A DNA stretch of 32,000 bases from Candidatus Methanophagaceae archaeon (GTDB lineage: Archaea > Halobacteriota > Syntropharchaeia > Alkanophagales > Methanospirareceae), in assembly GCA_003194425.1 (NCBI GenBank), contig PQXB01000003.1:30001-62000 (forward strand), read 5' to 3'. The notes under the pieces were generated by a model, which was not told the DNA's origin, ran no database searches, and was given only the letters and a program-made list of their open reading frames with translations. The position numbers and the translations under genes were made by a program. How positions within the stretch are numbered: position 1 is the first letter of the stretch; every line of letters begins with the position of its first letter. Below are positions 2,535 through 32,000 of the stretch, one piece after another.

Positions 2535-3416
2535 TTATTTAAATAAAAAAATCTTCTCTTTTATCCTTTTTATCCGCCCAACCACTTCCGCAGTTGCGCC
2601 TGCTTCCGCGTCCAACGGAGCCGTCCCTTCCAAATCCGCCTTCACCAACGCCTGCTCGTAAGGAATGGTCTCAAGCAGCGGAATGCCGAACTCCCGCAAC
2701 TTCGCCTCCACCTTCTCCACCGCACCCGAGTCCGTAACCTTGTTCAGCACCGCCACGACTTTTTTAATACCAATGTCTTCGGCGAGTTTTTTTATTCTGT
2801 CCACCGTCTCAACTGACCTCATTCCCGGCTCCACCACAGCAAGCATCAAGTCAACGCCCTTCGCAGTCCCCCGCCCCAAATGCTCTACGCCCGCTTCCAT
2901 ATCCAGCACGACCGTGCTCTCGCGCTCCTTGAACAACAAATGCCGCAGCAGAGCGCGTAGAAAAGCGTTCTCAGGGCAGACGCACCCCGTCCCGCCCTGC
3001 ACCACCGTTCCCATCACCAGCAGCGTCACTCCATCCGGACCCCTCGCACCGTACCGCTCAATTATGTCGCTCACCTTCGGGTTCAGCCTGTAGACGCCAG
3101 TCCAGGCGGCAGAGGCAGAAGCAGAGGCAGAGCCAGAGCCAGAGGCAGAGGCAGAGCCAGAGCCAGAGGCAGAGGCAGAGCCAGAGCCAGAGGCAGAAGC
3201 ACCAGCAGCAGTCCGCTCGAAAATCAAGTCCTTCAGTTCCGAAATCGGCGCAGGGTTCTCTTTAACGCCCAACGCGAACTTCAAATTCATCGCAGGGTCG
3301 GCGTCTACTGCAACTACGGTTTCCCCTTCCTTCGCCTCCCTTGCGAAAAGGCGAGCCAACGTGCCCGCGATCGTCGTCTTGCCGACTCCTCCTTTTCCCG
3401 CAACCGCTATTTTCAT
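2535..3416 (-). CDS. cooC: CooC-type nickel-insertion P-loop ATPase (MinD/ParA superfamily)
   Basis: N-terminal deviant Walker A (KIAVAGKGGVGKTT) and the CooC-type GCVCP (CxC) motif. Carries a 31-aa (AS/GS)n insert. Confidence 0.75.
   Translation of the reverse strand: MKIAVAGKGGVGKTTIAGTLARLFAREAKEGETVVAVDADPAMNLKFALGVKENPAPISELKDLIFERTAAGASASGSGSASASGSGSASASGSGSASASASAAWTGVYRLNPKVSDIIERYGARGPDGVTLLVMGTVVQGGTGCVCPENAFLRALLRHLLFKERESTVVLDMEAGVEHLGRGTAKGVDLMLAVVEPGMRSVETVDRIKKLAEDIGIKKVVAVLNKVTDSGAVEKVEAKLREFGIPLLETIPYEQALVKADLEGTAPLDAEAGATAEVVGRIKRIKEKIFLFK
3109..3200. repeat. hexamer array with 24-nt higher-order unit (gcagaggcagagccagagccagag x3 perfect, 3121-3192) inside cooC
   Basis: Read directly. 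Encodes ASASGSGS repeats on the minus strand. Confidence 0.95.
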
Positions 3417-3441
3417 TCTTACTTCAACAAACCTCCCTCCT

Positions 3442-3714
3442 TCACGGCGAGAGAATTTCCATTACTTTCACCGCAACGATTAGTGCGAAAATAATTAGCA
3501 TCGGCACGATTGTGATTGCCAGGCTTCCTGTCAGAGATTTTAGCCGCTCCTTGACGAGGGGGTTGTAGACTTCATTTTCGTAGGCGCTGCTCAGCTCCTT
3601 GGCGATCAACGCGAAAATCAAGATCCATGTACCAATTACACTCAAAGCGGCTGTGATTCCTAACGAGGTGGTGGCAACTACTACGGTAGTAGTGGTAACG
3701 GTGATGACGCTCAT
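3442..3714 (-). CDS. small hypothetical membrane protein (2 TM)
   Basis: The ORF track starts at TTG 3738; the first ATG is at 3714. Two hydrophobic segments and a T/V-rich N-terminus. No family recognised. Confidence 0.35.
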   Translation of the reverse strand: MSVITVTTTTVVVATTSLGITAALSVIGTWILIFALIAKELSSAYENEVYNPLVKERLKSLTGSLAITIVPMLIIFALIVAVKVMEILSP

Positions 3715-3793
3715 TTTTTTCTTATATTTATAGGACAAGGGGCTTTAAATAGTTTTTGTAGTTAAAATAAAACAGGTGCAAGAGGAGCTAAAA

Positions 3794-5434
3794 ATGGAGT
3801 TGGAATATTTGTTGGCGGGGCTGTACGCATTTCTGATTTACTGGGTTGTCGTGTTAGTTCTAAACAAGCGGGGCGTTCTGCAGCGGTACAACATCGCCGC
3901 GTTCGGACCGATTTTGATGTTAAGGACGACGCGAGGGCAGAAGTTGTTGGAGTGGTTGGCGAGGGGGCGAGCAAGAGAACGGTTTTGGCGGGCGTTCGCA
4001 AACATAGGGACGGTTTTAGTGTTTTTCGCGATGGTTTTTATGTTTGCTCTCGTCGTGCTCGGAGCGGTTGCTACTTTCACGGTTCAGCCGGAGCTGACGG
4101 AGTTGCACTCGCCCAAGAACTGGCTGCTTATTCCGGGGTTGAACGATTTTATTCCGCTCTGTGCTTGGTTTGGGTTTGTGGTTGCGTTGGTGGTGCACGA
4201 GCTCGCTCACGCGGTCTTGAGCACGGTGGAGGGGATAAAAGTGAAGTCAATGGGGCTTTTGGTCGCAGTTGTGCCTGTAGGAGCGTTCGCAGAGCCAGAC
4301 AGCGAGCAACTCTTCGGCGAGAAAGAGGAAGGGAAAGTGAAAGTAAAAGTGAAACCAAAAGCAACAGCCCGCGAGAGAACCCGAATTCTCGCTGCAGGCG
4401 TGACGAGCAACTTCTTCGTGGCTTTCCTCGCTTTTGCTCTCTTCTTCTCGATTTTGTCCGCGGTTCAGCCGGTCAGCGAGGAGGTGCTGTTTGTTCAGGA
4501 GGTGGTGCCAGGCAGCACAGCGGAGAAGGCAGGACTGCAGCCCGGAATGTTCGTCACAAAGGTCAAGAACACAAGCACGGCGGAAGTGAATCTGGACAGA
4601 GCGGTCGAGCGGAGAGAAGCGGTTGTTTTAAGCGTCTTAGACAAAACAGGGAAGGCGAGCGAGGTAGCGGTGGAAGGGGGTTACGAAAGTGAGGGCGTTA
4701 GAGTAGTGCAAGTTGTGGACGGGTTTCCAGCCGCGGACGCGGGCATTTGTGCAGGAATGAGTATAATAAAAATGGACGGCGTGAATGTCAGTGGCTACCG
4801 CGATTTTCGAAATTTTATGCAGCACACCGTTCCGGGTCAGACCGTAGAAGTGCAGACGAAAGGCGGCGAGAAGTTCTCTGTAAAGTTAGCAGTAGCCCCG
4901 AACGGGAGCGAGGACGAAGACGAGGCAAAAGGCTTCTTGGGTGTCTCGCTTCTCGCAAACAACGGATTAGGAATCTGCGTTACTGAGTTTCCAACGAGAG
5001 GCTACTTGGAACACCTGCGGAGCATTCCCTCCTCTCTCGCGTCGTTTTCAAGTCACAGCAGAGGCTGGCTGTGGCTGACAGCCCTACCATTTTTACCACC
5101 TCCCAACGGCTTCCGCAGTTTCAACCCTCTGCTCTCGCATTTCTACGAGCCAGTGGGTACTGCAGCGTCGTTTCTGGGCGACGGTATTTTCGTGGTCGCT
5201 GACTTGCTGTTTTGGGTGGGCTGGATAAATTTTTATGTCGGGCTGTTTAACTGCCTGCCCGCGGTTCCTCTCGACGGCGGCTACGTGTTCCGCGAGCTGC
5301 TGAACCCTGTGCTGCGGCTGGGCATAAAAGACGAGCGGAGGAAAGAGAAGGTCTCAAAAGCAATTACCGCAGCGCTCGCGCTTTTTGTCGCCGCTTCCAT
5401 CGCCTTCACTCTGGTCGGCCCTCGTCTCTTGTAA
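3794..5434 (+). CDS. site-2 protease family (M50) zinc metalloprotease with PDZ domains
   Basis: HELAH (HExxH) in a TM helix, two PDZ-like segments (GSTAEKAGLQPGM, FPAADAGICAGM) and the C-terminal NCLPAVPLDGG motif. ATG 3794 with GAGGAG 7 nt upstream is preferred over GTG 3776. Confidence 0.85.
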   Translation: MELEYLLAGLYAFLIYWVVVLVLNKRGVLQRYNIAAFGPILMLRTTRGQKLLEWLARGRARERFWRAFANIGTVLVFFAMVFMFALVVLGAVATFTVQPELTELHSPKNWLLIPGLNDFIPLCAWFGFVVALVVHELAHAVLSTVEGIKVKSMGLLVAVVPVGAFAEPDSEQLFGEKEEGKVKVKVKPKATARERTRILAAGVTSNFFVAFLAFALFFSILSAVQPVSEEVLFVQEVVPGSTAEKAGLQPGMFVTKVKNTSTAEVNLDRAVERREAVVLSVLDKTGKASEVAVEGGYESEGVRVVQVVDGFPAADAGICAGMSIIKMDGVNVSGYRDFRNFMQHTVPGQTVEVQTKGGEKFSVKLAVAPNGSEDEDEAKGFLGVSLLANNGLGICVTEFPTRGYLEHLRSIPSSLASFSSHSRGWLWLTALPFLPPPNGFRSFNPLLSHFYEPVGTAASFLGDGIFVVADLLFWVGWINFYVGLFNCLPAVPLDGGYVFRELLNPVLRLGIKDERRKEKVSKAITAALALFVAASIAFTLVGPRLL

Positions 5435-5467
5435 CCCTCTCCCTCATTTCACGAAGTCTCTTCTAAC

Positions 5468-6500: not shown

Positions 6501-6567
6501 CTCTTACCCCTTCACTACTCTCCAATCTACACTACTCTTACCCCTTCACTACTCTTACCCCTTCACT
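6501..6567. repeat. intergenic 17-nt repeat (actcttaccccttcact x2 tandem at 6534-6567, plus a third copy at 6501-6520)
   Basis: Read directly. Lies between the DUF106 stop and the CBS gene ATG. Confidence 0.9.
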
Positions 6568-6591
6568 ACTCTTCAACTTACATTCCAACCC

Positions 6592-7366: not shown

Positions 7367-8098
7367 ATGTTTGTTTTTGGGCATCTCGGGGTAACGCTGG
7401 GAGTCGTATTTTTGGCGCTACGGCTCTTAAAATTAAGAACAAAACTTGAAATCAAGTTCAACCGCCGTCTCTATCTTTTTGTCTTCACGGGCTCGCTCTT
7501 GCCTGATTTAATTGACAAGCCAGTAGGCGAGATTTTGCTGGCAGGTTCAATCTCAAACGGCAGAATCTTCGCCCACACGCTCCTCTTCAACTTTCTCCTG
7601 CTACTCTTTTGTCTTTGGCTGTACAAGCGAAGCGGCAGCCGAGAAGGGAGAGAAGGGAGCAGAGAAGAGAGAGAAGGGAGAGAAGGGAGCAGAGAAGAGA
7701 GAGAAGGGAGAGAAGGGAGCAGAGAAGAGAGAGAAGGGAGAGAAGGGAGCAGAGAAGAGAGAGGGCTAGGAGGAAACAAGAATGGTTTTGGGTTTCTGCT
7801 CTTCAGTTTTGCTTCTTTTCTTCACCTCTGCGAGGATCGGATGTGGCTCACTCCAGAGACGCTGTTCTTCCCTGTTTTTGGGTTTGAGTTTCCGCAAGGC
7901 GCGGTAGAATCGCACTGGTGGGACTTTTTTTTAGGCTGCTTTTTCGGGACTTACTCGCCTTTGAGGGGTGCTGAACTCTCGTACGTGTTTGTCTCTGAAA
8001 TGGTAGGCTTTTCGGTCCTGCTGGCGTTCGGTTTGCATCATTTCCACAGTTTTATCCTCCGCTACCGAATGTCGAACCAGAGGTGGAGTTCGCGGTAA
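7367..8098 (+). CDS. membrane-bound metal-dependent hydrolase-like protein (DUF457/YdjM-like)
   Basis: N-terminal FGHLG...SLLPDLIDKP pattern and a polytopic membrane profile. Interrupted by a 40-aa (EGREGSREER)4 insert. Confidence 0.45.
   Translation: MFVFGHLGVTLGVVFLALRLLKLRTKLEIKFNRRLYLFVFTGSLLPDLIDKPVGEILLAGSISNGRIFAHTLLFNFLLLLFCLWLYKRSGSREGREGSREEREGREGSREEREGREGSREEREGREGSREERGLGGNKNGFGFLLFSFASFLHLCEDRMWLTPETLFFPVFGFEFPQGAVESHWWDFFLGCFFGTYSPLRGAELSYVFVSEMVGFSVLLAFGLHHFHSFILRYRMSNQRWSSR
7641..7760. repeat. 30-nt tandem repeat x4, perfect (gagaagggagagaagggagcagagaagaga)
   Basis: Read directly. In frame in the DUF457-like gene; encodes (EGREGSREER)4. Confidence 0.97.
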
Positions 8099-8853: not shown

Positions 8854-8928
8854 GAGAGGAGAAGGAGAGGAGAAGGAGAGGTGTGGAAAAGGAGGAGAAG
8901 GAGGAGAGGAGAGGGAGAGAGAGGAAAG
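8854..8928. repeat. ~75-nt polypurine/polypyrimidine tract (interrupted only by tgt at 8882-8884)
   Basis: Read directly. Lies between the mtd stop and the preferred DUF1616 start. Confidence 0.9.
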
Positions 8929-8936: not shown

Positions 8937-9803
8937 TCACGCACTCGGTTTCTCCAGCAACCCGACCTTCCTCATTATTTCTCCGCTCCTTGCGTGCGGC
9001 TCGCGGACGAGGCTGTCGGTCTGCTTCTCCATTTCCCGTGCCTCGAAAGCGAGTTTCGCGGCTTCACGCAAGAGTTCGTGCGCCGCCGCTACAACAGGCA
9101 CGTACTCCTCAGGCTTCTGCATCATAAAACAGCCCTTCACATCCAGCTCCGCCACCTTCTCGGTCATACTGTAAGCCGCGAGAGCCTTCGCTTTTGCGTA
9201 CGGGTTCGAGAACCCCGCCCGTTCTACCGACTTCTCCGCGGTCGCGATTATCTGCGGTAATTTCACTTCCTCGCCGCTTGCACCGCTCGGACCGCTCGCT
9301 CCGCTCTTCACAGCTTCTACGACCGCGTCAATCTCCTCCTGCAACAACTTCGCCACGCCCGTAATTGAGAGCACCGAGAGTACGTCGGCGTTAAACAGGC
9401 TCATTTCTACGGGGTCTAAAAACTCCCGCCTCGCTCCGATCATCGGGTCGCCGGGAATAATAATGTAGCCAAAACCACCCTCCTTCAACTTCGGCACCGC
9501 CTTCTTCGCAGGTGCGTCCGAGATAACAATGCACGGCTTGCCCTTCTCTTTCGCCATCTCACGCGCTCGCTTCGGTCCTGGAAGAGCCGCGTTCGGGCTC
9601 ACTACCACCACCAAATCCGGGTCCCAGTCAAGCAACCGCGAAGCGTCCGCAGCGCAGTCTGGCGTCATTTTCGCTCCCGTCCCCAGCACACGAACATCCA
9701 CATCCTCTCTGTCCGCTCTCTCGTCCAGCAACAAATCCACAATCCTCGAAGCACCGATGTTCCCCAATTTCACAAATCCTACTTTCACTATTTCCTTCGC
9801 CAT
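8937..9803 (-). CDS. mtd: F420-dependent methylenetetrahydromethanopterin dehydrogenase
   Basis: Full-length colinearity with Mtd as I recall it: KLGNIG...LLLDERADREDVDVRV...GARREFLDPVEM...NPYAKAKA...YVPVVAAAHE...AREMEK. Confidence 0.93.
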   Translation of the reverse strand: MAKEIVKVGFVKLGNIGASRIVDLLLDERADREDVDVRVLGTGAKMTPDCAADASRLLDWDPDLVVVVSPNAALPGPKRAREMAKEKGKPCIVISDAPAKKAVPKLKEGGFGYIIIPGDPMIGARREFLDPVEMSLFNADVLSVLSITGVAKLLQEEIDAVVEAVKSGASGPSGASGEEVKLPQIIATAEKSVERAGFSNPYAKAKALAAYSMTEKVAELDVKGCFMMQKPEEYVPVVAAAHELLREAAKLAFEAREMEKQTDSLVREPHARSGEIMRKVGLLEKPSA

Positions 9804-10060: not shown

Positions 10061-10759
10061 TTACTTCAGCACCTCCAGCAATGCAACCCGCTCCAAGACC
10101 AACTTCCCTAACTTCTCCTCGCCCTTCCCCTTTCCCTCACCCTTTCCCTCACCCTTTCCCTCACCCTCACCCTTTCCCTCGCCCTCGCCCTTTCCCTCGC
10201 CCTTTCCCTCTCCCACCGCCCTCAACTCCGCTTCGGTTACGCCAAAGAACTTTTTTATTCGCTCCCTCTTCGCCTCATTCAATTCTAAAACCGCCTCTTC
10301 CTCCAACCCCGTCTTCCTCTTCACCTCCGCCGCCACCGCCTCCAAATCCAACTCCTTCTTTCTCTTGCCCTCTCCCTCCCTCACTGCGTCAAAAATAACG
10401 ACCGCAACACTCTTCTCGTCGCCTTCGCGCTCTGACGCCGAGACGCCAATTTCCAACGCCCGTCCAATCTGCCTTCTACCCGCAGCGTACAAGAGAACCT
10501 CCAAGCCCAGGTCGCTCGTTAGGTTTCTTCCGCTCTTTTCGGCTCTCACCGCCTTCTGAACCGCTGACTTTAAGTGCTCCTCGCCTGCCACTAAGTTCGC
10601 GTTCAGAGCTTGCACCACCACGCCGTCGTAGTTGGAGGCAACGCTTTTCAGCGTAGCAAGAAAAGCCTTTAAATTCGGAATGCGGACTTTACCGGCGAGT
10701 ATTTTGGTGTTTATTTTGGAGTTTTGTTCCCGCTCTAAATATTTTTCTTGGTTTTGCAT
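10061..10759 (-). CDS. cgi121: KEOPS complex subunit Cgi121
   Basis: VVQALNANLVAGEEHLKSAVQKAVRA...LGLEVLLYAAGRRQIGRALEIG matches the Cgi121 core. The C-terminal half contains a (GEGK/GEGE)n insert. Confidence 0.6.
   Translation of the reverse strand: MQNQEKYLEREQNSKINTKILAGKVRIPNLKAFLATLKSVASNYDGVVVQALNANLVAGEEHLKSAVQKAVRAEKSGRNLTSDLGLEVLLYAAGRRQIGRALEIGVSASEREGDEKSVAVVIFDAVREGEGKRKKELDLEAVAAEVKRKTGLEEEAVLELNEAKRERIKKFFGVTEAELRAVGEGKGEGKGEGEGKGEGEGKGEGKGEGKGKGEEKLGKLVLERVALLEVLK
10129..10212. repeat. 12-nt (6-nt sub-unit) tandem array cctttccctcac / cctttccctcgc inside cgi121
   Basis: Read directly. Encodes a GEGK/GEGE run on the minus strand. Confidence 0.93.
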
Positions 10760-10760: not shown

Positions 10761-10792
10761 TTGCATTTTTTTACAGTTGCATTTTTTTACAG
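10761..10792. repeat. intergenic 16-nt perfect tandem duplication (ttgcatttttttacag x2)
   Basis: Read directly. In the divergent region between cgi121 and the methyltransferase. Confidence 0.95.
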
Positions 10793-10845
10793 TTTGTTAT
10801 TGTTTTGCTTTACTAGTTAACAAATAAAGGGAAATAAATGGGAAA

Positions 10846-11406: not shown

Positions 11407-12569
11407 AAAACAGGAAGAAGATAAAAGTAGGGGTCTTGGGAGCGACGGGAAGCGTGGGGCAGAGGTTCGTGCAGCTTTTAGACGGACACCCCTGGTTCGA
11501 GCTCGCGGGGCTCTTCGCATCTGAGAGGAGTGCAGGGAAAAAATACCGCGAGGTGGCGAAGTGGTTCCTGCCGTCTGAAATGCCAGAGGAGGTTGCGGAG
11601 ACGGTAGTACGGTCAGTGGACGAGGCGGGTGCTTCAGTGAGAGGAGACGGAGGAGACGAAGATGAAATCGCAATTATGTTTTCCGCTCTGCCGGGGTCGG
11701 TTGCGAGCGAAGTGGAGAAGAGGTGCGCGGCTGCGGGTTTCGCGGTCTGTACAAATGTCTCGGTGCACAGAATGGATCCCGACATTCCGCTGGTCATTCC
11801 GGAGTTGAACGCTGACCATTTGGCTTTGATCGAGGTGCAGAAGAAGAGGAGGGGCTGGGACGGACGGGGCGGGTTCATCGTGACGAACCCGAACTGCTCT
11901 GCGATTGTTCTGACTTTGAGTCTGAAGCCGCTGATGCAATTAGGGAACGGGATAAGGGAGGTGCGGGTAGCGACGATGCAGGCGGTCTCGGGCGCCGGTT
12001 ACGCAGGCGTGCCCTCGATGGCGATTATTGACAACGTGCTCCCTTTCATCGGAAACGAGGAGGAGAAAATGGAGACCGAGCCACTCAAGATTCTCGGCAC
12101 GCTGGAAGTGGAAGCGGGAGCGGGAGCAGGAGCGGGAGCGGGAGCAGGAGCAGGCTGGAAGAGAATAAAAAATGCTGAGTTCAAGGTCTGTGCCTCTTGC
12201 CACCGCGTTCCTGTTTTAGACGGGCACACAGAGGCGGTCTGGGTGCGGTTTGAGGACGGGGAAGGAGGGGAGGATGGGGAGAGTGTGGGGGTGGAAGAAG
12301 TGAAATCGGCGTTCAGAAACTTCGCTACGCCACTAAAAACGCCGTTCGCACCTGAAAACCCGATAATTCTGCGTGAAGAGCCGGACAGACCGCAGCCGAA
12401 GTTGGACAGGGACGCGGGTGGGGGAATGAGCGTCTCGGTCGGTCGGGTGAGAAAAGGGCGGGCGGAGAACGAAGTGAAATTTATCACGCAGGGGCACAAC
12501 ACAGTGAGGGGCGCTGCCGGTGCCTCGATTTTAAACGCCGAGGTGCTGGTTGAGAGGGGCTACATTTAA
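11403..12569 (+). CDS. asd: aspartate-semialdehyde dehydrogenase (archaeal type)
   Basis: VGVLGATGSVGQRF Rossmann N-terminus, active-site NPNCS, SGAGY, CHRVPVLDGH. Contains an E(AG)7 insert. Confidence 0.88.
   Translation: MKNRKKIKVGVLGATGSVGQRFVQLLDGHPWFELAGLFASERSAGKKYREVAKWFLPSEMPEEVAETVVRSVDEAGASVRGDGGDEDEIAIMFSALPGSVASEVEKRCAAAGFAVCTNVSVHRMDPDIPLVIPELNADHLALIEVQKKRRGWDGRGGFIVTNPNCSAIVLTLSLKPLMQLGNGIREVRVATMQAVSGAGYAGVPSMAIIDNVLPFIGNEEEKMETEPLKILGTLEVEAGAGAGAGAGAGAGWKRIKNAEFKVCASCHRVPVLDGHTEAVWVRFEDGEGGEDGESVGVEEVKSAFRNFATPLKTPFAPENPIILREEPDRPQPKLDRDAGGGMSVSVGRVRKGRAENEVKFITQGHNTVRGAAGASILNAEVLVERGYI
12114..12155. repeat. 6-nt / 18-nt tandem array (gcgggagcgggagcagga x2.3) inside asd
   Basis: Read directly. 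Encodes (AG)7. Confidence 0.93.
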
Positions 12570-12789: not shown

Positions 12790-12834
12790 GATTTGTTACT
12801 TATTAGACAAACCAGTAGCAAACGCCACTTTAGG

Positions 12835-15791: not shown

Positions 15792-18790
<2,999 letters not shown>

Positions 18791-20666: not shown

Positions 20667-20681
20667 CTCCCTCTACCTCTT

Positions 20682-23678: not shown

Positions 23679-23716
23679 TCTAACAATGTTTTTCACGCAT
23701 TTTTGTTTTTTCTTTT

Positions 23717-23755
23717 GCGTGTTTGTTTTGCGTGTTTGTTTTGCGTGTTTGTCTT
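23717..23755. repeat. intergenic 13-nt tandem repeat gcgtgtttgtttt x3
   Basis: Read directly. Lies upstream of the ABC ATPase in the divergent region. Confidence 0.93.
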
Positions 23756-23818
23756 GTTTTTATAAAAGGAAAAAACATTTTTTAAAGGAAGGAACATTTA
23801 TTTAAGTGGTGAGAAAAA

Positions 23819-24325: not shown

Positions 24326-25909
24326 TCAGTCCTTTCCGAACTGCTCCACCGCACTCTCCGCAGCGTCGACCATAACATCCCGATGCAACGAGACGCAGGG
24401 GTCAAAGCTCTTCTCCATTCTGCTCAACTCCTTCGCTGTCACCCCTTTTCTGATTGCGTTGCAGAGCCCGTCAATTCTGTCCGCAACCATTTCCTCGGAG
24501 ACTAACTGCGCACCTACCAACCGCTCGGAATAAGAGTCGAAGAGCAATTTCACCGCCATTGTTTTCCTCCCTTGGTAGAACCTCGCTCTCGTTGGCTTTT
24601 CCTTCTTTCCGCTCACCACTTTCATCCCGAACCTCGCAGCGGTCTCGGTTGTAATTCCTACCGTGCCTACTTGGAAGTCTGAGATCGTCGCCACCGCGGG
24701 GCTCAGGGCAGGCTCAAGCGAGTAGCCGACGCCCGTCAAATTATTTGCAACGACTTTCGCCTGCACCAGTGCGGAAGAGGCGAGTTGGCTCAGTCTCGGG
24801 CGAAGCGTAATTGCGTCTACGACCTCTACACAGTCGCCGAGTGCGTAGACATTTTTTATGTATTTTCCCCCCTCCGCCTGCCCCTGCCTTCTTTTAACCT
24901 GTAGGTACTGGTTGGTTACAATTCCGCCAGTCTCGCCGATTTGCAGACCTGCCTTCTCTGCCAATTCTGTATTTGGAATCATCCCTCTCGAAATCACGAC
25001 AATATCTGCAGGAATTTCCTCTCTTTCTCCCTCTCCCTCTCTTTCTCCCTCTCCCTCTCTTTCTCCCTCTCCCTCTCTTTCTCCCTCTCCCTCTCTTGCC
25101 TCTGGCCCTCCTACCACGACTGACTTCACCTTTGACTTCACCTTCGCACCGTCGCCTTTTATCTCCTTCACCTGTTTTCCAAAAATGAACTCAACCCCCT
25201 CCTTCTCCAGCCTTGCACGAACTAAAGAGCCCATATCGGGGTCTAAAATGCTGGAGAGCGGTGTTGGATGCCCGACTACAACCCTCGTCTTCAACCCCTT
25301 TTTCAAGAAAGCGAGAGCCACCTGCAGCCCAATCGTACCACCGCCGAGAACCACTGCGTTCTTCGCTTCCGGAGAATTCATCGCCGCCTCTATCTTCTCG
25401 CCGTCTTCTACGGTGCTCATTGTGTAAACCCCTGCCAGTCCTCTCCCTTCTCCTTCTGCTCCAGGTATTTTAAGGACATCAGGGACACGAGGTCGCCGCC
25501 CGGTCGCGATTACGAGAAAATCATATTTTATCTCCTCTTCACTCCCGAGACTTCCAGGACTCCCAGGACTCCCGAGACTCCCAGGACTCCCGAGACTCCC
25601 AGGACTCCCGAGACTCCCAAGACGCACGCTGCTCTCTTCTAAATTAATTCCCGTCGCTTCGGTCTCTGTTCGGTAGTCAATGCCGTGGCTAACGAAGGTC
25701 TCTGGCGGGTCAATCTCCGCGACCTCCTTCATATTAAAAACCCCTTGCAATGCAAGTGGCACCGCGCAAATAGATGCAGAACCGCCCTTCTCCTTCTTCA
25801 CAAGCGTTATCTCAAACTGCTTGAGAACCTCCGCCCCTTTCTTAAATAGTGCTTCCACCGTGTATGTCCCCGCGTCACCACCGCCAATTATCACTAATTT
25901 TTTCGCCAT
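24326..25909 (-). CDS. FAD-dependent pyridine nucleotide-disulfide oxidoreductase (NADH oxidase / CoA-disulfide reductase-like)
   Basis: KLVIIGGGDAG dinucleotide fold, single redox Cys context (SASICAVP), second Rossmann VVLGGGTIGLQ, YALGDC. ATG 25909 with AAGGAGGG upstream is preferred over 25927. Two perfect-repeat inserts. Confidence 0.8.
   Translation of the reverse strand: MAKKLVIIGGGDAGTYTVEALFKKGAEVLKQFEITLVKKEKGGSASICAVPLALQGVFNMKEVAEIDPPETFVSHGIDYRTETEATGINLEESSVRLGSLGSPGSLGSPGSLGSPGSPGSLGSEEEIKYDFLVIATGRRPRVPDVLKIPGAEGEGRGLAGVYTMSTVEDGEKIEAAMNSPEAKNAVVLGGGTIGLQVALAFLKKGLKTRVVVGHPTPLSSILDPDMGSLVRARLEKEGVEFIFGKQVKEIKGDGAKVKSKVKSVVVGGPEAREGEGEREGEGEREGEGEREGEGEREEIPADIVVISRGMIPNTELAEKAGLQIGETGGIVTNQYLQVKRRQGQAEGGKYIKNVYALGDCVEVVDAITLRPRLSQLASSALVQAKVVANNLTGVGYSLEPALSPAVATISDFQVGTVGITTETAARFGMKVVSGKKEKPTRARFYQGRKTMAVKLLFDSYSERLVGAQLVSEEMVADRIDGLCNAIRKGVTAKELSRMEKSFDPCVSLHRDVMVDAAESAVEQFGKD
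25021..25092. repeat. 18-nt tandem repeat ctctttctccctctccct x4, perfect, inside the oxidoreductase gene
   Basis: Read directly. Encodes (REGEGE)4 on the minus strand. Confidence 0.97.
25541..25621. repeat. 9-nt tandem array (actcccgag / actcccagg) x9 inside the oxidoreductase gene
   Basis: Read directly. Encodes (LGS/PGS)9 on the minus strand. Confidence 0.95.
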
Positions 25910-25946: not shown

Positions 25947-26900
25947 ATGCAGGAAAGCCTGATGATGGAGTGCATACAGCGCATACAATGCGCCGAGGCG
26001 GTAGTAGAGTTAGAGGAAAACTGCGACCTCGTGTGTAAACGGCGAGTAGCGAAGCGGTACAGGGTAAAGGAAATAGACGAGCGGCTAAGGCGGGAGAGGA
26101 CGAAGAGCGAAGCGAAAATAATCTCGGAAGCGAGGCGGAGAGGCGTCCTTACGCCAATTATTTTCGACATTTCCGACTACGAAATCGTGATGGAGCGGGT
26201 AGAGGGGGTCTTGGCGAGAGAGGTGTTTGAGCGGGAGGGCGAGGCAGACGAGGGCAGCGAAGTGGGTGAGGGCAGCGAAGTGGGTGAGGGCAGCGAAGTG
26301 GGTGAGGGCAGCGAAGCGGTAAGCGAGAAAATAGGCGAGTTTGTCGGCGTCTTGCACGAGAACGGGATAATTCACGGCGACTTGACTACCTCTAATATCA
26401 TCGTCGTGAGACGGGACGGTAGGGAGAGAACCGTCTATTTCATTGACTTCGGGCTCTCCTTCTACGAATCGAGCGTAGAAGCGAGGGGCGTAGACGTGCA
26501 CGTATTTTTCCAGAGCCTTCAAGGCACGCACGAAAGACACGAGCGTTTAAAGGACGGCTTTGTGCGGGGCTACAAAAAATCCTCCCCTGACGCAGCACGA
26601 GTGCTGAAAAGGGTAGAGGAAATCGAGCATCGGGGGCGGTACGTGAAGAGGAAGAGAGAGAAGACAGAGAACTGGAGAAGAGAGAAGACAGAGAACTGGA
26701 GAAGAGAGAAGAAGAAGAAAACTTCAACTCCAAAATTCCAAGACACTCACGTACGAGAGCGTTACAACCACCCCAGCGAGCAGCACGCCTGCAAAAATAG
26801 CACTAAACGCGTGCCTGCTGCGAATGCCGAAGACGAACGCGACTGCACACGCCGTCCAGGCTCCTGTTACGGGCAGAGGAACGGCGACGAACGGAATTAG
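25947..26900 (+). CDS. bud32: KEOPS subunit Bud32 (Kae1-associated kinase/ATPase) with an atypically long C-terminal tail
   Basis: K(R)RY..K..DE.LR..RT..EA.I...AR..GV, IIHGDLTTSNI, YFIDFGLS, GVDVHVF, IE.RGRY. The track ORF from 25680 is antisense overlap with the neighbour; ATG 25947 gives the Bud32 N-terminus. The first in-frame stop is only at 26898-26900. Confidence 0.8.
   Translation: MQESLMMECIQRIQCAEAVVELEENCDLVCKRRVAKRYRVKEIDERLRRERTKSEAKIISEARRRGVLTPIIFDISDYEIVMERVEGVLAREVFEREGEADEGSEVGEGSEVGEGSEVGEGSEAVSEKIGEFVGVLHENGIIHGDLTTSNIIVVRRDGRERTVYFIDFGLSFYESSVEARGVDVHVFFQSLQGTHERHERLKDGFVRGYKKSSPDAARVLKRVEEIEHRGRYVKRKREKTENWRREKTENWRREKKKKTSTPKFQDTHVRERYNHPSEQHACKNSTKRVPAANAEDERDCTRRPGSCYGQRNGDERN
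26250..26321. repeat. 18-nt tandem repeat gagggcagcgaagtgggt x4 (last copy 1 mismatch) inside bud32
   Basis: Read directly. Encodes (EGSEVG)n. Confidence 0.96.
26655..26714. repeat. 24-nt tandem repeat agagagaagacagagaactggaga x2.5 in the bud32 tail
   Basis: Read directly. Encodes REKTENWR twice. Confidence 0.95.
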
Positions 26901-27258: not shown

Positions 27259-28962
27259 ATGAAATTCGACCCAAAGCAGATAAGAGAAGAGACGAGGAGG
27301 GATTTTGAAGCCGCGTGGTTGGCGGGAACGAAATACGCGGGCGAGCGAAGCCTGAACGATAAATATCCGAGGTCCTTACTGCGTTTAGGTGTAGGAAAGC
27401 CGCACCCTGTTTTTGAGACGATTCAAAAGTTGAGAGAGGCGTACTTGCGGCTCGGGTTTGAGGAGGTGCTGAACCCGGTTGTGATTGAGGAGGCGGAAGT
27501 GAAGCGGCAGTTTGGAAAGGAGGCGCTTGCGGTTCTTGACCGCTGCTACTACCTCGCGGGTCTGCCTCGTCCTGACATCGGAATTTCAGACGAGCGGGTG
27601 AAGCGAATGAACTCGTTCCTCGAGGGGAAAGCGTTCTCGAAGGAAGCGGAGGAGGTAGAGGCGCTCAGGAGAACCTTGCACCGCTACAAGAAAGGCGAAC
27701 TTGACGGCGACGACCTGGTCTTTGCGGTGGCGGAGAGTTTGGACGTGGCGGACACGGAGGTGACGAAACTGCTTGACGGCGTCTTCCCGGAGTTGAAGAG
27801 CCTTGCTCCTGTCCCGCTCGGTTCAGCCGACTCGGGCAGTGGCAGGAGCACACTGCGAAGCCACATGACTTCAGGTTGGTTCTTGACACTTGCTGAGGTT
27901 TGGAAGAAGAGACCGCTGCCGCTGCGACTCTTCTCGGTGGACAGGTGCTTCAGGCGAGAGCAGCGCGAGGGCGAAATCCGACTCCGCAACTACCACTCCG
28001 CTTCTTGCGTGCTACTCTGCGACGAGGCTGGTGACGAGGCTGGTGACGAGGCTGGTGACGAGGCTGGGGCAGGAAGAGGGGGAGTGAGCGTGGACGACGG
28101 CAAGGAGGTCGCGACGGGGCTGCTTCTGCAGTTCGGGTTCGATAAAATGCGGTTCAGGGCGGACGAGAAGCGGTCAAAATATTACATTCCAGACACACAG
28201 ACAGAAATTTTCTGCCACCACCCACGAATCGGGTGGGTGGAGGTGGCGACTTTTGGGATTTACTCGCCCACCGCCCTCGCACAGTACGACATTCCTTACC
28301 CTGTGCTGAATCTCGGGTTGGGCGTGGAGCGGTTGGCGATGATTCTGCACGACGCGGACGATGTGCGGGCGTTGGCGTTTCCGCAGTTCCACGCCGAGTG
28401 GCGACTGAGCGACTTGGAGTTGGCGGGGCTGGTGAGCGTTGCCGAGACGCCCTGCACCGCGGAGGGTGAGGAAATTGCGAGGGAAATTGTTCGGGTCTGC
28501 GAGGAAAAGGGCGGGGAGGAGTCGCCTTGCGAGTTCCTCGCTTGGCGTGGGTGCGTGTCTGGAGGAGGAGAGGGGAAGGGGGAGGTAGAGGTGTGGGTAG
28601 TGGAGTTGGAGGAAAAGACGCTTTTGTGCGGTCCCGCGTGCTTGAACGAGGTGGTCGTGCACGAGGGTTCGGTGCTTGCCGTGCCGAGGGGGAAGAAGGA
28701 GTGGGAAGCGGTCTTTGAGGCGGGCGTGCCGACTGGGATAAGATTTTTGGACGCTTTTGCTGCTCTTGCGGCTCGCAAGATTGAACTGTGGGGGGAGAGG
28801 GGGGAGGAGAAGAACTGCGAGGTGAAGGTAAAAATGGTGAGGAGTGGGGCGGACGTGAACATAAAAATAGACGACTTGGCGGTGCGTTTTGTCACCTCGT
28901 GGAAGAAGAAGGTGGATTTGAGGGGACCTGTTTTTGTTACGGTGGTAGCTAAGCGGATTTGA
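27259..28962 (+). CDS. sepS: O-phosphoserine--tRNA(Cys) ligase (SepRS)
   Basis: GKPHPV..TIQKLREAYLRLGFEE, LDRCYYLAGLPRPD, TLRSHMTSGWF, FSVDRCFRREQRE, YHSASCV, KYYIPDTQTE, NLGLGVERLAM. Colinear over the full length with SepRS as I recall it. Confidence 0.93.
   Translation: MKFDPKQIREETRRDFEAAWLAGTKYAGERSLNDKYPRSLLRLGVGKPHPVFETIQKLREAYLRLGFEEVLNPVVIEEAEVKRQFGKEALAVLDRCYYLAGLPRPDIGISDERVKRMNSFLEGKAFSKEAEEVEALRRTLHRYKKGELDGDDLVFAVAESLDVADTEVTKLLDGVFPELKSLAPVPLGSADSGSGRSTLRSHMTSGWFLTLAEVWKKRPLPLRLFSVDRCFRREQREGEIRLRNYHSASCVLLCDEAGDEAGDEAGDEAGAGRGGVSVDDGKEVATGLLLQFGFDKMRFRADEKRSKYYIPDTQTEIFCHHPRIGWVEVATFGIYSPTALAQYDIPYPVLNLGLGVERLAMILHDADDVRALAFPQFHAEWRLSDLELAGLVSVAETPCTAEGEEIAREIVRVCEEKGGEESPCEFLAWRGCVSGGGEGKGEVEVWVVELEEKTLLCGPACLNEVVVHEGSVLAVPRGKKEWEAVFEAGVPTGIRFLDAFAALAARKIELWGERGEEKNCEVKVKMVRSGADVNIKIDDLAVRFVTSWKKKVDLRGPVFVTVVAKRI
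28021..28068. repeat. 12-nt tandem repeat gacgaggctggt x4 inside sepS
   Basis: Read directly. Encodes (DEAG)4. Confidence 0.97.
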
Positions 28963-28970
28963 GTCTCTAA

Positions 28971-30530
28971 TCAAGACCCTCCCGCCGCCGCCCCACCGAC
29001 CAAAATCCTCTTCACCCGCACGTGCGGTGCGAATTCCGAGACCGGGACTTCTTGACCGTCCTTACCGCAGAACCCGATTGAACCTCGCTTCTTCTCCTGC
29101 CCCACCGCGTCAATTTCTTTCAACACCTCCAGCGTCCTGCCCGAGAGCGAGACATTCTTCAGCCGCTTCGTGAGCCTGCCTTTCTCAATCAGGAACGCTT
29201 CTTCGGCGCTGAACTGAAACTCGCCCCGCACCGTGTCCACCTGCCCCCCACGCATTCCCTTCGCGTAAATCCCAAACCGCACCCCCTCCAGCATTTCCTC
29301 AAAACTCCAACCTCTTCCCGCTCCCGCTCTCGAACCCGCTTCAACCACAGTGTTACTCATTCTGACCAGCGGAACTTCGGAATAATCAGCAGCCCTTGCG
29401 TTCGCAGTCGGCGTCGCCTCCAACCTGCCCGCGGTCTCCCTCGTGTGCAAGTAGGAGACCAGAACGCCGTTCTTTATTATTTCTGTCCTCCTCGCCCGCA
29501 GCCCCTCGTCGTCGTACTTGTAGTAGCCGTGCGACCCCACGACGGTCGGGTCGTCGGCAACGGTCAAGCCCTCGTAAGCTACCTGCTCGCCCAGTTTGTC
29601 CTTCAGAATTGACTCACCGCATAAAACGTGGTCGGCTTCCGCGGCGTGCCCGAGTGCCTCGTGCATAAAAACACCCGTGAGCTTGCTGTCCATTATTACA
29701 GGGAACTCGCCAGCAGGAGGCTGTTCAGCGTCAAGCAGCCTGACCGCCTTGTCCGCGGCCTTTACACCCACTACCTCGGGATTCCCCTCCGCTGCCACTC
29801 CCTCCGCTGCTACTCCCTCCGCTGCCACTCCCTCCGCTGCCTCTCCCTTCGCTACCTCTCCCTCTTCTGCCACGACCTCAAACCCAGCCACCGCTCCCAC
29901 GCTCTCCACGCCTTCCTGCAGAACGCTGCCTTTCTTTGCAACTACACGCACGCGCAAAAAAACCGCAGGCATCTCAGTTACGACAAAACACCCCTCAGAG
30001 TCCGCGTAGGTCTTCTCCTCGTAGCCGTCCAAATACAAAATAGAAACGCTTTTTACGAGTGGGGAGTGCTGCGTTGCCGCTTTGTACGCTGCCTTAACCA
30101 GCCTCTTTTTCTCCTCTACGCTAACATCCTCAGGATTTATTTTCGGCTTCAGTTTAAAATGGTCGCTCCGCGGCTTCGCACCTGCCATTTTTACGGCTTC
30201 CTCCTCCCTCTTCTTCTCTAATTCTGACTTCTCCGATTCTAACTTCTCTGATTCTGATTTTGAGAGCGACAACGCCCTTCCAACCCTTAAAGCGTCCTCA
30301 AAAGCAGCCTTTATTCTGGGCTTTGAGAGCTCGTTAGAGGAGGAGAAGCCCCACGAGTTTTTGTAGAGCACTCTTACGCCCACGCCCTCGTCAATTCCGT
30401 AACTCATTTCTCTGAAGACGCCGTCTCTCAATTCGAGGGTAGTTGCGTAACCTTTTTCGAGCCGAATGTCCGCGAATCTCGCCCCCTCCGAAATCACAAA
30501 ATCCACTGCCTTTTTTATCTCTTCTTGCAT
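28971..30530 (-). CDS. tldD: TldD/PmbA-family metalloprotease
   Basis: ADIRLE...GVGVRVL N-domain, HEALGHAAEAD metal-binding motif, C-terminal GEFQFS...AYLIE-like block. ATG 30530 (MQEEIKKA) is preferred over 30575. Two repeat inserts. Confidence 0.8.
   Translation of the reverse strand: MQEEIKKAVDFVISEGARFADIRLEKGYATTLELRDGVFREMSYGIDEGVGVRVLYKNSWGFSSSNELSKPRIKAAFEDALRVGRALSLSKSESEKLESEKSELEKKREEEAVKMAGAKPRSDHFKLKPKINPEDVSVEEKKRLVKAAYKAATQHSPLVKSVSILYLDGYEEKTYADSEGCFVVTEMPAVFLRVRVVAKKGSVLQEGVESVGAVAGFEVVAEEGEVAKGEAAEGVAAEGVAAEGVAAEGNPEVVGVKAADKAVRLLDAEQPPAGEFPVIMDSKLTGVFMHEALGHAAEADHVLCGESILKDKLGEQVAYEGLTVADDPTVVGSHGYYKYDDEGLRARRTEIIKNGVLVSYLHTRETAGRLEATPTANARAADYSEVPLVRMSNTVVEAGSRAGAGRGWSFEEMLEGVRFGIYAKGMRGGQVDTVRGEFQFSAEEAFLIEKGRLTKRLKNVSLSGRTLEVLKEIDAVGQEKKRGSIGFCGKDGQEVPVSEFAPHVRVKRILVGGAAAGGS
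29785..29874. repeat. 15-nt tandem array ccctccgctgccact x6 (progressively degenerate) inside tldD
   Basis: Read directly. Encodes (AAEGV)n on the minus strand. Confidence 0.93.
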
Positions 30531-30598
30531 TTTTATAGAAACAAAACAGAATTTGTAGAAATAAAACAAAAGCAAAACAAAATCTAAAAAAGAAGAAG

Positions 30599-30672
30599 GG
30601 GGCTGTAGCTCAGACTGGGAGAGCGCTCGGCTGAAGACCGAGTTGTCCCGAGTTCAAATCTCGGCAGCCCCA
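30599..30672 (+). tRNA. tRNA-Phe (anticodon GAA)
   Basis: Hand-folded: acceptor GGGGCTG/CAGCCCC, D arm GCTC-AGACTGGGA-GAGC, anticodon stem CTCGG/CCGAG with loop CT-GAA-GA, variable TTGTC, T arm CCGAG-TTCAAAT-CTCGG, discriminator A. Confidence 0.92.
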
Positions 30673-30693
30673 CTACGCCACTCTACCCAAGAA

Positions 30694-32000
30694 ATGATAA
30701 CAATTGCGTTGGCAGGGAAGCCGAATTCAGGAAAATCAACATTCTTCAAGGCTGCTACGCTCGCCGATGTTGAAATCGCTTCGTACCCGTTCACGACGAT
30801 TTCGCCAAATGTCGGGGTCGCCTACGCGAGGGTAAAATGCCCCTGCAAAGAGAGAGAGGTTCTGGAGGCTGTAGGAGGTGGTGGAGACGGCAGCGGAGAC
30901 GGTGGAGACAGTGGAGACGGTAGAGACGGTAGAGACGGTAGAGACGGTGGAGACGGTGGAGACAATGGAGGTGGCGGAGGTGGCGGAGGCGGGTGTGGGA
31001 ATTGCGTCGACGGGGTTCGCTTCGTGCCTGTAGGTCTCTTAGATGTTGCAGGTCTTGTCAGGGGTGCGCACGAGGGAAAGGGGCTGGGAAACGAGTTCCT
31101 GGACGAGCTCAGGCAGGCAGAGGCGATAATTCAGGTCGTTGACGCTTCTGGCGGGACAGACGCAGACGGGAATGTGGTGGAGCGCGGGACGCACGACCCC
31201 TACGAAGATGTCCTTTTTTTCCGGGAAGAACTGACCGAGTGGGTAAAGGGGATTTTAAGCAGAAACAAGCGGAAACTGGAGCGAAAATCTGAATTAGAGA
31301 CAGGAGCAGGAGCGGGAGGCGGTGCGAAGACCGCACGGCTGCTTGCCGAGCAGTTAGCCGGCGTTGGCGTGACCGAGGAGCAGGTAAAAATCGCTATTTT
31401 GAAATCCCTCGTCGCGGGCAAGCCCAACCTAAAATCGTGGGACGGAGACGACCTCAAAGATTTAGCCGCGCAGTTGGTAAAGCAGAGTAAAAAAATGGTA
31501 CTTGCCGCAAACAAGGCGGACGCAGCACCAGAGGCGGAGGAGAACATAAAAAAGCTGAAGGAACTTTGCGAAATTGAAGGAGAGGGCGAGGTAGTCCCGT
31601 GCTCTGCGGAGGCGGAGCTTGCGTTGAGAACTGCTGCAAAGAACGGGTTCGTAAAATACCTGCCCGGCGACACGGATTTTGAAATCTCTCCCTCTGCGTC
31701 GGCAGAAATTACAGAGAAGCAGAGACGAGGGCTGGAAAAAATACGAAAACTAATTCAAAATTTTGGCGGCACAGACGGCGGCACAGACGGTAGCGGCACA
31801 GACGGCACAGGCACGGGAACTGGAACGGGCGTTCAAGCAATTATAAATCGTGTGGTCTTCGATTTGCTGGACTACGTGGTTGCGTACCCTGTAGAAGACG
31901 AGCACAACTTCAGCGACGGCTCGGGCAGAGTCCTGCCAGACGCGTTTCTTTTGAAGAAAGGTAGCACCGCGAGAGACCTTGCCTACGCAATTCATTCAGA
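30694..32000 (+). CDS. ychF: Obg-like/YchF-type P-loop GTPase-ATPase with TGS-like C-terminus (3' end outside window)
   Basis: Not in the ORF track because it has no stop. I translated it by hand and it is open from ATG 30694 to base 32000. G1 GKPNSGKSTFF, G2 YPFTT, G3 LLDVAGLV, G4 ANKAD, and a late VAYPVED...LPDAFLLKKGSTARDLAYAIHS block. A CPC...CGNC knuckle is split by a G/D-rich repeat. Confidence 0.75.
   Translation, partial: MITIALAGKPNSGKSTFFKAATLADVEIASYPFTTISPNVGVAYARVKCPCKEREVLEAVGGGGDGSGDGGDSGDGRDGRDGRDGGDGGDNGGGGGGGGGCGNCVDGVRFVPVGLLDVAGLVRGAHEGKGLGNEFLDELRQAEAIIQVVDASGGTDADGNVVERGTHDPYEDVLFFREELTEWVKGILSRNKRKLERKSELETGAGAGGGAKTARLLAEQLAGVGVTEEQVKIAILKSLVAGKPNLKSWDGDDLKDLAAQLVKQSKKMVLAANKADAAPEAEENIKKLKELCEIEGEGEVVPCSAEAELALRTAAKNGFVKYLPGDTDFEISPSASAEITEKQRRGLEKIRKLIQNFGGTDGGTDGSGTDGTGTGTGTGVQAIINRVVFDLLDYVVAYPVEDEHNFSDGSGRVLPDAFLLKKGSTARDLAYAIHS
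30880..30993. repeat. 9-nt tandem array (ggtRgagac) grading into a ggaggtggc run inside ychF
   Basis: Read directly. Encodes GDG/SGD/GRD repeats then poly-Gly. Confidence 0.93.
31765..31830. repeat. 12-nt tandem array ggcggcacagac x2 plus degenerate copies inside ychF
   Basis: Read directly. Encodes GGTD GGTD GSGTD GTGTGTGTG. Confidence 0.9.

Follow-up and report, generated by a model that had tools for sequence, protein, structure and literature searches.

We report that a 32,000-nucleotide (nt) stretch of an archaeal chromosome (contig PQXB01000003.1, positions 30,001 to 62,000; "the window" below always means this whole stretch) carries short tandem arrays inside 14 of its 31 coding sequences (CDS) and in the spacers between them, and that these arrays are real, are insertions specific to one lineage and differ in copy number between strains. 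The source species is "ex4572_4", a GC-shifted member of group 1 of the anaerobic methanotrophic archaea (ANME-1, Methanophagales) from Guaymas Basin hydrothermal sediment, where it ranks among the most abundant metagenome-assembled genomes (MAGs; PMC5569505). The account that we consider most likely, with a probability of roughly 0.65, is that tandem duplication and slippage are elevated across the whole lineage and that their products are filtered by selection.

Calling arrays with Tandem Repeats Finder (TRF; score ≥50, period ≤60), we counted 27 short-period arrays in the window, corresponding to 0.84 per kb and 5.3% of its bases. Twenty lie inside CDS and the remaining seven are intergenic. 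An earlier note, made from the letters of this DNA alone, had listed arrays in at least 12 of about 32 CDS; TRF reproduced every listed array and period, Pfam confirmed the gene identities, and the copies proved 100% identical in YdjM (30 nt), the FAD oxidoreductase (18 nt), sepS (12 nt) and both bud32 arrays. For larB the 12-nt period stood while the count of six copies did not (TRF gives 7.1), and the seven intergenic arrays, six of them with periods not divisible by three, had been missed. When codons were shuffled within genes, 7.05 ± 0.67 arrays remained; these are the seven unshuffled intergenic ones, so the chance expectation inside CDS is close to zero.

The same criteria yielded 0.04 arrays per kb in 253 kb of other ANME-1 and 0.035 per kb in 113 kb of GC-matched control loci (50–56% GC), placing the window about 20-fold above both. 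The window has 52.6% GC, compared with 39–46% in 26 loci of other ANME-1, and on the strength of the matched controls we rejected high GC as an explanation for so many repeats; a locus from Alkanophagales with 60% GC carries about 0.43 arrays per kb. Conspecific assemblies contain 0.4–1.2 arrays per kb, and 37.6 kb of conspecific sequence beyond the window contains 1.01 per kb, in genes for FBPase, TiaS, a CobQ-like protein, PHP, EMC6, a RuvC-family protein (PF02075) and others. Thus, the trait is not local to the window. We also applied the stricter criterion introduced for perfect repeats in Borgs, the extrachromosomal elements of Methanoperedens (at least 50 nt, at least three units, no mismatch; PMC9879509). 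Five regions of the window qualify, making up 1.28% of its bases, against 0.37% in conspecific loci and 0.012% in 1.08 Mb of other loci, a 30–100-fold excess over the latter. The supposition that repeat density exceeds that of relatives was therefore borne out by both measures.

To compare strains, we obtained conspecific sequences through a metagenome scan and exact look-ups of array-free proteins; a scan of GTDB representatives at this locus returned no conspecific and only relatives of ≤78% identity. This gave about 20 independent same-species assemblies (JGI, ENA, NCBI), in which arrays were located by their unique flanks; all copy numbers come from short-read metagenome assemblies of mixed populations. 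While only 0.76% of aligned sites differ from the window, length varied at 20 of 25 CDS arrays and at all five intergenic arrays compared (25/30 overall), and pairs of assemblies differed in length at an array in 46% of cases for CDS and 67% for intergenic arrays. Nearly all indels of at least 3 nt between these assemblies and the window fall within arrays. Inside CDS the differences were always whole units, with none of 198 departing from a multiple of three, and the implied rate of length change per array is about 60–90 times the substitution rate per site. Copy number is polymorphic and the arrays are evolving now. They show the head-to-tail copies and whole-unit number differences between close relatives by which variable-number tandem repeats and slipped-strand mispairing are recognized. 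The recent or ongoing expansion that the earlier note had read from perfect copies is apparent in ProB (one versus two copies), in SepRS (three versus four) and in TldD and YchF, each with nine sequence alleles in nine assemblies.

Could the arrays be artefacts of short-read metagenomic assembly or sequencing? De Bruijn assemblers can miscount units, N-gaps coincide exactly with three arrays in the scaffolded assembly L119, and gene callers mis-split YchF at its array. Nevertheless, identical array sites recur, with different whole-unit copy numbers, in about 20 assemblies from various projects and assemblers (JGI, ENA MEGAHIT, SPAdes, NCBI MAGs), patterns of single-nucleotide polymorphism agree at the level of individual units, length differences involve whole units only, and most arrays are shorter than both the k = 141 used and the read length. 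We therefore regard an artefact as extremely improbable.

Alignment established the arrays as insertions. Inserts are absent from the ANME-1 orthologues (60–78% identity) of eight genes (SepRS, FAD oxidoreductase, Bud32, ProB, DUF3160, Mtd, SepF and ZPR1), and the solved structures of Asd (1YS4) and CooC (3KJE) also lack them, as had been expected of characterized relatives. The HSASCV and VSVDDGK blocks of SepRS, described in the earlier note as near-adjacent, are indeed only 4–6 residues apart in about 20 ANME-1 orthologues, which read HSASCV-LCNE(D/E)(GE)-VSIDDGK; the window protein has C(DEAG)4AGRGG at that site and further small inserts, GSADSGSG and GGGEG. The alignments point to local seeds, with CNEDGE giving C(DEAG)4, SLGTEEE giving (LGSPGS)n LGSEEE and AKVKS giving AKVKSKVKS, and the repeat unit differs at every array. 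Among segments proposed as degenerate inserts, those of Mtd, SepF and ZPR1 held up against ANME-1 orthologues and that of RibC is supported by a +21 nt allele; the S2P linker, on the other hand, is also low-complexity in the orthologue, and longer there.

This last case, together with the SepRS loop that follows HSASCV, a site of repeated insertion in several lineages (P0040 and the window), is what could be said for the segments being ancient conserved features of their protein families. We give that reading practically no credence, and for the genes aligned it is refuted, as the inserts are missing from orthologues of about 20 ANME-1 species, from a 40-sequence consensus of wider homologues and from the two solved structures, and the inserts of other lineages differ in sequence. 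Shared inserts, a typical repeat density and assembly artefacts, the three outcomes that the earlier note had named as counting against its claim, were thus each looked for and not found.

We next considered where the inserts lie in predicted structures. AlphaFold models of SepRS (mean predicted local distance difference test score, pLDDT, of 80) and of the oxidoreductase (pLDDT 85, predicted template modelling score 0.85) each contain three segments with pLDDT <50. All six are arrays or lineage-specific inserts (two oxidoreductase arrays, one SepRS array and three short inserts), and all are modelled as coil between regular secondary-structure elements. By the pLDDT of these two models, the arrays sit in loops predicted to be disordered. 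The short arrays are not structural protein repeats, being absent from orthologues and predicted as coil; only the 66–204-nt repeats of the NosD-like gene at 13503-14686 fit that description.

Other Syntropharchaeia carry inserts of their own in SepRS. Lineage P0040 has an independent simple-repeat insert, DRDRDRDSDG, at the same loop, lineage P0056 (Alkanophagales) has an independent insert, RARARAGAAAAVAGAG, near the N terminus, and P0042 has its own; these were seen in L030/L031 (SRR27899006/7), L029 and L028, and include a GGEE tail. Such milder, independent inserts, along with the Alkanophagales locus of 60% GC, suggest a quantitative and recurrent trait within the class.

The relation of the arrays to reading frame separates the process from its filter. 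Periods are divisible by three in 19 of 20 CDS arrays, the exception being a degenerate array with indels, but in only one of seven intergenic arrays, the other six having periods of 11, 13, 14, 16, 17 and 20 nt. Likewise, length differences not divisible by three account for 0/198 observations in CDS and 15/42 in intergenic arrays, and intergenic arrays are at least as dense as coding ones. Since intergenic arrays ignore the triplet rule in both period and length change, frame preservation reflects a selection filter and not a property of the process, contrary to what the term "frame-preserving" in the earlier note might suggest. For the coding arrays, phase-variable contingency loci, in which repeats switch genes on and off by frameshift or from promoters, were considered and rejected, as no frameshifting allele appeared in the 198 CDS observations.

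Composition is similarly skewed. A purine content of 75% or more on one strand marks 17 of the 27 arrays, compared with 5% of background windows, and coding-strand purine reaches 78% inside arrays (47% G, 31% A) versus 57.5% elsewhere, a bias that tracks the orientation of genes on either DNA strand. Among the encoded residues, G makes up 25%, E 23%, S 11%, R 9%, A 8.5% and K 7%, and no M, I, F, C, H, Y or Q is encoded. As polypurine sense strands encode hydrophilic, flexible residues and polypyrimidine ones would give S, L, F and P, the effects of peptide selection cannot be told apart here from those of a mutational or transcription-linked bias.

These residues also bear on whether the inserts are positively selected, as disordered charged loops useful in hot hydrothermal sediment, with intergenic arrays tuning expression. 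The benefits under such a reading, which we judge improbable, would be of the kind of solubility, "entropic bristles", binding sites or condensates. It would explain the strong bias to disorder-promoting G, E, S, R and K and the fact that arrays are in frame in every assembly; the abundance and success of the population argue against simple genetic decay (PMC5569505), and the Borg authors argue for selection on similar repeats (PMC9879509). On the other hand, array length is unconstrained, with up to six length alleles in nine assemblies, array sequences are unrelated between genes, non-coding DNA is at least as dense in arrays, and unrelated enzymes are struck indiscriminately. Persistence in frame shows that frameshifts are lethal, not that inserts are useful.

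The arrays called by TRF, with their variation among assemblies, are as follows.

2426..2470, minus strand: degenerate GA-rich array at the SepF N terminus, KGKREGGVGEGEGV; about 10 amino acids (aa) without counterpart in the L060 ANME-1 orthologue; length constant in 8 assemblies.
3108..3201, minus strand: CooC array of 6/24-nt units (24 nt x3.8), (GSGSASAS)n; a 34-aa insertion between residues 73 and 74 of 3KJE; 5 length alleles in 7 assemblies, with an N-gap here in L119.
4321..4361, plus strand: S2P protease linker array, 6/12 nt, GKVKVKVKPK; 4 length alleles (0, +6, +12, +18).
6501..6573, intergenic: period-17 array lying upstream of a CBS gene; lengths differ by -46, -15, 0 and +30.
7641..7763, plus strand: YdjM (DUF457) array, 30 nt x4.1, perfect (100% matches), (EGREGSREER)n; qualifies as a perfect repeat by the Borg criterion; 5 length alleles in 8 assemblies.
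8854..8925, intergenic: GA/CT-rich array in the spacer that separates mtd from the DUF1616 gene, with periods of 6-16; 5 length alleles; DUF1616 starts downstream of it in conspecific gene calls.
9274..9306, minus strand: degenerate 9-nt Mtd array, GASGPSGASG; a 9-aa insertion relative to the L039 orthologue; length constant in 9 assemblies (window plus 8); the cluster includes a 284-aa member.
10117..10214, minus strand: Cgi121 array, 12 nt x7.2, (GEGK)n; 4 length alleles (-54, -48, -12, 0).
10761..10794, intergenic: perfect array, 16 nt x2.1; one 16-nt copy missing in L114.
12113..12151, plus strand: Asd array, 6/18 nt, (GA)n; a 14-aa insertion relative to M. jannaschii Asd (1YS4); 3 length alleles.
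15933..15952, minus strand: RibC low-complexity segment; extra 21 nt in L035.
16281..16299, intergenic: 9-nt array (x2.1) with one copy more in the window than elsewhere, 9/9 other assemblies being 9 nt shorter.
16413..16439, plus strand: DUF3160 array, 12 nt x2.2, NGTG; one unit missing in 4/11 assemblies.
16935..16968, plus strand: DUF3160 array, 15 nt x2.3, EAEEA; 15 nt shorter in one assembly.
18571..18606, plus strand: DUF3160 array, 9 nt x4, (GEA)n; absent from ANME-1 orthologues; longer in 11/11 other assemblies (+9, +18 or +27 nt), giving 4 length alleles in 12 including the window.
19359..19415, minus strand: ProB array, 24 nt x2.4, (SKKEGRNK)x2; absent from the L022 orthologue; 1 or 2 copies, the single copy of L033 being flanked by TTCTT partial repeats.
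20012..20074, minus strand: degenerate 12/24-nt array in the HAD hydrolase; constant length, 6 sequence alleles.
20671..20708, no strand assigned: 20-nt array straddling the aminotransferase stop codon; grows downstream of the stop only, with alleles of 0, +20 and +40 nt.
22195..22279, plus strand: LarB array, 12 nt x7.1, (SELR)n; 4 length and 9 sequence alleles in 9 assemblies.
23700..23805, intergenic: arrays of 13 nt and 19 nt in the region of divergent promoters that separates the ABC ATPase gene from a small open reading frame (ORF) at 23819; 9 length alleles in 9 assemblies, with differences not divisible by three, from -31 to +41.
25018..25097, minus strand: FAD oxidoreductase array, 18 nt x4.4, perfect, (EGEGER)n; absent from orthologues; predicted coil with pLDDT <50 at model residues 273-292; 3 length alleles.
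25541..25623, minus strand: FAD oxidoreductase array, 9/18 nt, (LGSPGS)n; grew from orthologous SLGTEEE; predicted coil with pLDDT <50 at model residues 102-122; 3 length alleles.
26250..26316, plus strand: Bud32 array, 18 nt x3.7, perfect, (EGSEVG)n; absent from 5 ANME-1 orthologues; 3 length alleles.
26655..26712, plus strand: perfect array, 24 nt x2.4, just past the ancestral bud32 stop; alleles of 0 and -24 nt.
28021..28067, plus strand: SepRS array, 12 nt x3.9, perfect, (DEAG)4; predicted coil with pLDDT <50 at residues 259-272; 4 units in the window versus 3 in 8/8 conspecific assemblies.
29785..29873, minus strand: TldD array, 15 nt x5.9, (AAEGV)n; 6 length and 9 sequence alleles in 9 assemblies.
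30213..30257, minus strand: TldD array, 15 nt x3, SEKLE; 4 length alleles.
30891..30989, plus strand: YchF arrays, 9/18 nt, (GDG[RG])n then poly-G; 5 length and 9 sequence alleles in 9 assemblies.
31765..31810, plus strand: YchF array, 12/15 nt, (GTDG)n; 6 length alleles.

Several of these loci call for further detail. As every one of the nine assemblies differs in length at 23700-23805, promoter spacing varies between strains. The oxidoreductase has 533 aa in the window and 506 aa in a conspecific, compared with 455–461 aa in most other ANME-1. At bud32, other ANME-1 end with RGRYVERK-TGA, a stop that has become AGA in the window, and the ORF now runs 82 aa past it, overlapping the 3′ end of the convergent PF06695 gene (26724-27209) in antisense. 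An exact look-up of the window SepRS returned no record, the window having four DEAG units and every other assembly three.

Two side observations concern the same genes. In repeat-poor ANME-1 (L023 at ~9300-9340, L025, L002), a short run of (GCGGTTTA / GGTTAGC)n, which has stop codons in every frame, lies just after the bud32 stop, at the position of the GA-rich array of the window. Intact ychF (window 30694-31998; L120, L122-L127) is split by gene callers at the GDG array in seven of eight assemblies, into a 48–57-aa ORF and one of roughly 357 aa; frameshifts implied by these calls were rejected, as the ORF is intact in all assemblies.

We propose the following sequence of events for elevated duplication and slippage. 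Tandem duplications of 6–30 nt would arise, and then expand and contract by slipped-strand mispairing, far more often than in relatives. Seeding would draw on local sequence, preferably purine/pyrimidine-asymmetric stretches, in coding and non-coding DNA alike. Within genes, the only survivors would be units divisible by three whose codons specify flexible residues, either small or charged (G, E, S, R, A, K), tolerated in surface loops, linkers and termini. Copy number would shift between strains, and point mutation may later decay the arrays into degenerate low-complexity inserts.

Several points weigh against this account. We infer, and did not directly observe, slippage as the molecular step, and the near-neutrality of the inserts and a cause in a lineage-specific change in replication or repair, or in the strength of selection, have the same standing. 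A length-change rate of ~60–90 times that of substitution is modest compared with classical contingency loci. The assemblies are short-read and derive from mixed populations, so individual alleles may be mis-assembled, and N-gaps fall exactly at three arrays in L119. The promoter-region arrays at 23700-23805 exist and may have some function, e.g., in promoter spacing, and the sense-strand purine bias could come from peptide selection or from a transcription-linked or triplex-linked mutational bias.

A different molecular origin would be a process dedicated to forming repeats, e.g., by a particular polymerase or some other enzyme, and identical or analogous to the one behind Borg repeats; it would take the place of generic slippage combined with relaxed constraint. 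Perfect-repeat density here is at the Borg level (0.37–1.28% versus 0.62% in Borgs and ≤0.01% in Methanoperedens; PMC9879509), both systems share units divisible by three in ORFs and mostly not so between genes, local seeding with flanking partial repeats and a purine-type bias of the ORF strand, and the step from sister lineages and GC-matched DNA is sharp, at ~20–100-fold. We nonetheless hold this to be unlikely. The window and its flanks contain no candidate gene, the bias here is for G+A and not A alone, and slippage on short pre-existing direct repeats accounts for all events seen, including the birth of a second ProB copy from one. Moreover, the milder independent versions in Syntropharchaeia (P0040, P0042, P0056) suggest a quantitative trait and not a single machine. 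A broader and still speculative idea, which we hold only tentatively, is that Borg-style repeat formation is a transferable or evolvable cellular trait, such that a specific replication or repair change (or an enzyme) switched on genome-wide seeding in one ANME-1 lineage, together with a 10-point rise in GC, with milder independent versions in other Syntropharchaeia.

The setting of the arrays is plainly cellular. Pfam and NCBIfam scans of the window gave 31 CDS and two tRNAs (tRNA-Gln, tRNA-Phe), and an Rfam scan found nothing beyond the latter. The CDS comprise two DUF116 genes, ZPR1, SepF, CooC, the S2P protease, two CBS genes, EMC3/DUF106, YdjM (DUF457), DUF1616, Mtd, Cgi121, a methyltransferase, Asd, a NosD-like beta-helix protein, RibC, DUF3160, ProB, the HAD hydrolase, a class-V aminotransferase, LarB, the ABC ATPase, the small ORF, the FAD/pyridine-nucleotide oxidoreductase, Bud32, the PF06695 membrane protein, SepRS, TldD and YchF; three ORFs (DUF1616, one CBS gene and bud32) begin too far upstream. 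The closest relatives of the window SepRS, DUF3160 and oxidoreductase are ANME-1 (Methanophagales) proteins, at only 72–74% identity, and the order PyrRedox-Bud32-PF06695-SepRS is shared with other ANME-1 chromosomes. These core genes, the tRNAs and the conserved order identify the window as chromosome and led us to reject a Borg-like or other extrachromosomal element.

Larger-scale features were also noted. The NosD-like gene (window 13503-14686) contains 66/69/138/204-nt repeats that are beta-helix structural repeats (PF13229, PF05048), a class distinct from the short arrays; its protein has 936 aa in the window and 525 aa in L120 and L121. It lies within a strain-variable junction (12585-16299, breakpoint near 12735-12760). 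Conspecific contigs L112-L116 have DegT, DHQS, DeoC and proteasome genes after asd in place of the NosD gene, different genes adjoin ribC in L122 and L124, and in L035 the NosD-RibC block is inverted, with extra inverted copies of the block ends; no inverted repeats flank that block in the window. Two explanations are possible for this junction, a genomic hot spot and a join made by the assembler in one of the records.

In some strains (L113 5703-8971, L114, L116; ~window 11400), an insertion of ~1.5 kb between the methyltransferase gene and asd carries a gene for a 288-aa EVE plus NucS_C-like PD-(D/E)xK nuclease and a duplicated 67-aa 5′ fragment of asd, and looks like an integrated element restoring its target. 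We rejected this gene, which sits in a strain-variable island, as evidence on mismatch repair, as it is an EVE and PD-(D/E)xK fusion scoring 53 bits against a NucS cut-off of 216. Some strains (L113 14302-15133, L114, L118) also have a Pol-beta nucleotidyltransferase/HepT toxin-antitoxin-like pair between the CBS and S2P genes, at a site corresponding to window ~5434-5468; the pair is absent from the window.

Taken together, a density of fast-changing repeats so far described for Borg elements alone is found here in the chromosome of an abundant methane-oxidizing archaeon, a second, independent and cellular instance of the phenomenon. It breaks the general rule that prokaryotic housekeeping enzymes normally lack low-complexity sequence (PMC10120016), as 14 of the 31 window genes have it and it is still changing between strains. 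Since this cellular case comes with many sequenced, repeat-poor ANME-1 relatives, the question of repeat formation becomes directly testable by comparison; if repeat formation were indeed a cellular trait, comparison with repeat-poor sisters could reveal the responsible factor, which work on Borgs was unable to establish. There are practical consequences as well. Arrays break scaffolds (the N-gaps of L119) and make gene callers split intact genes (YchF), and many array-bearing proteins have no precomputed Pfam match in look-up tables, which may be connected with their arrays; the repeats appear to degrade automated annotation. Finally, the arrays are strain-resolving length markers for an ecologically dominant methane oxidizer.

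Among eukaryotes, Plasmodium falciparum and Dictyostelium have lineage-specific, compositionally biased, slippage-prone low-complexity inserts in surface loops of conserved enzymes. The composition of those inserts mirrors the nucleotide bias of the genome, and they grade from repeats into degenerate low-complexity sequence. These genomes are extremely AT-rich and the tracts are of Asn/Lys or Gln/Asn; here, by contrast, the host is an archaeon and GA-rich arrays encode G, E, S and R. In prokaryotes, low-complexity regions arise mainly by replication slippage and are a rapid way for genes to evolve over short times (Persi et al. 2023, PMC10120016), while 30–50% of orthologous groups, largely housekeeping or essential, have none (PMC10120016); in the window, arrays occupy SepRS, Asd, ProB, Bud32, Cgi121 and YchF, among others. 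The bacterium Ehrlichia ruminantium resembles our case in that active genome-wide expansion and contraction of repeats, with strain differences, was described for a cellular prokaryotic chromosome (a 2005 study, as summarized in PMC10710844). As that summary presents it, the targets are non-coding, the host is a reduced, intracellular bacterium whose coding ratio is very low, and in-frame inserts across many housekeeping enzymes are not among the features it reports (PMC10710844).

Our literature search for ANME-1 with tandem repeats, low complexity, disorder or microsatellites found no report, and we found no description of such arrays for an archaeal chromosome, or for housekeeping genes of a cellular chromosome; a 2026 paper on genomic hot spots in ANME-1 left out variants no longer than 50 bp. 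To this extent the earlier note holds, but its statement that no mechanism had been described is overstated given the precedent of Borgs. The tandem repeats of these extrachromosomal elements of Methanoperedens are the closest known system (Schoelmerich et al. 2023, PMC9879509), with perfect direct repeats making up ~0.6% of the genome (0.62%) and virtually absent from related genomes (Methanoperedens ≤0.01%; PMC9879509). Both systems have pervasive perfect or near-perfect tandem direct repeats, at a comparable density by one criterion (0.37–1.28% here, 0.62% there). In Borgs, units within ORFs are all divisible by three and most intergenic units are not; here the figures are 19/20 CDS arrays divisible by three and 6/7 intergenic arrays not. 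In both, arrays are unique to each locus, locally derived, accompanied by flanking partial repeats and absent from homologues, and unit number varies, within populations in Borgs and between assemblies here. Borg repeats encode disorder-promoting residues, and the arrays here are predicted as coil with pLDDT <50 in two AlphaFold models. There are also differences. Borgs are giant linear elements of ANME-2d, whereas these arrays lie on an ANME-1 cellular chromosome with tRNAs, SepRS, Mtd, KEOPS genes and conserved gene order. They affect core cytoplasmic enzymes here and mainly extracellular or membrane proteins in Borgs; the purine-type enrichment of the ORF-carrying strand is for G+A here, driven by G (47%) more than by A (31%), and for A in Borgs; the residues are G, E, S and R here and P, T, E and K in Borgs; and many arrays in the window are imperfect or decayed.

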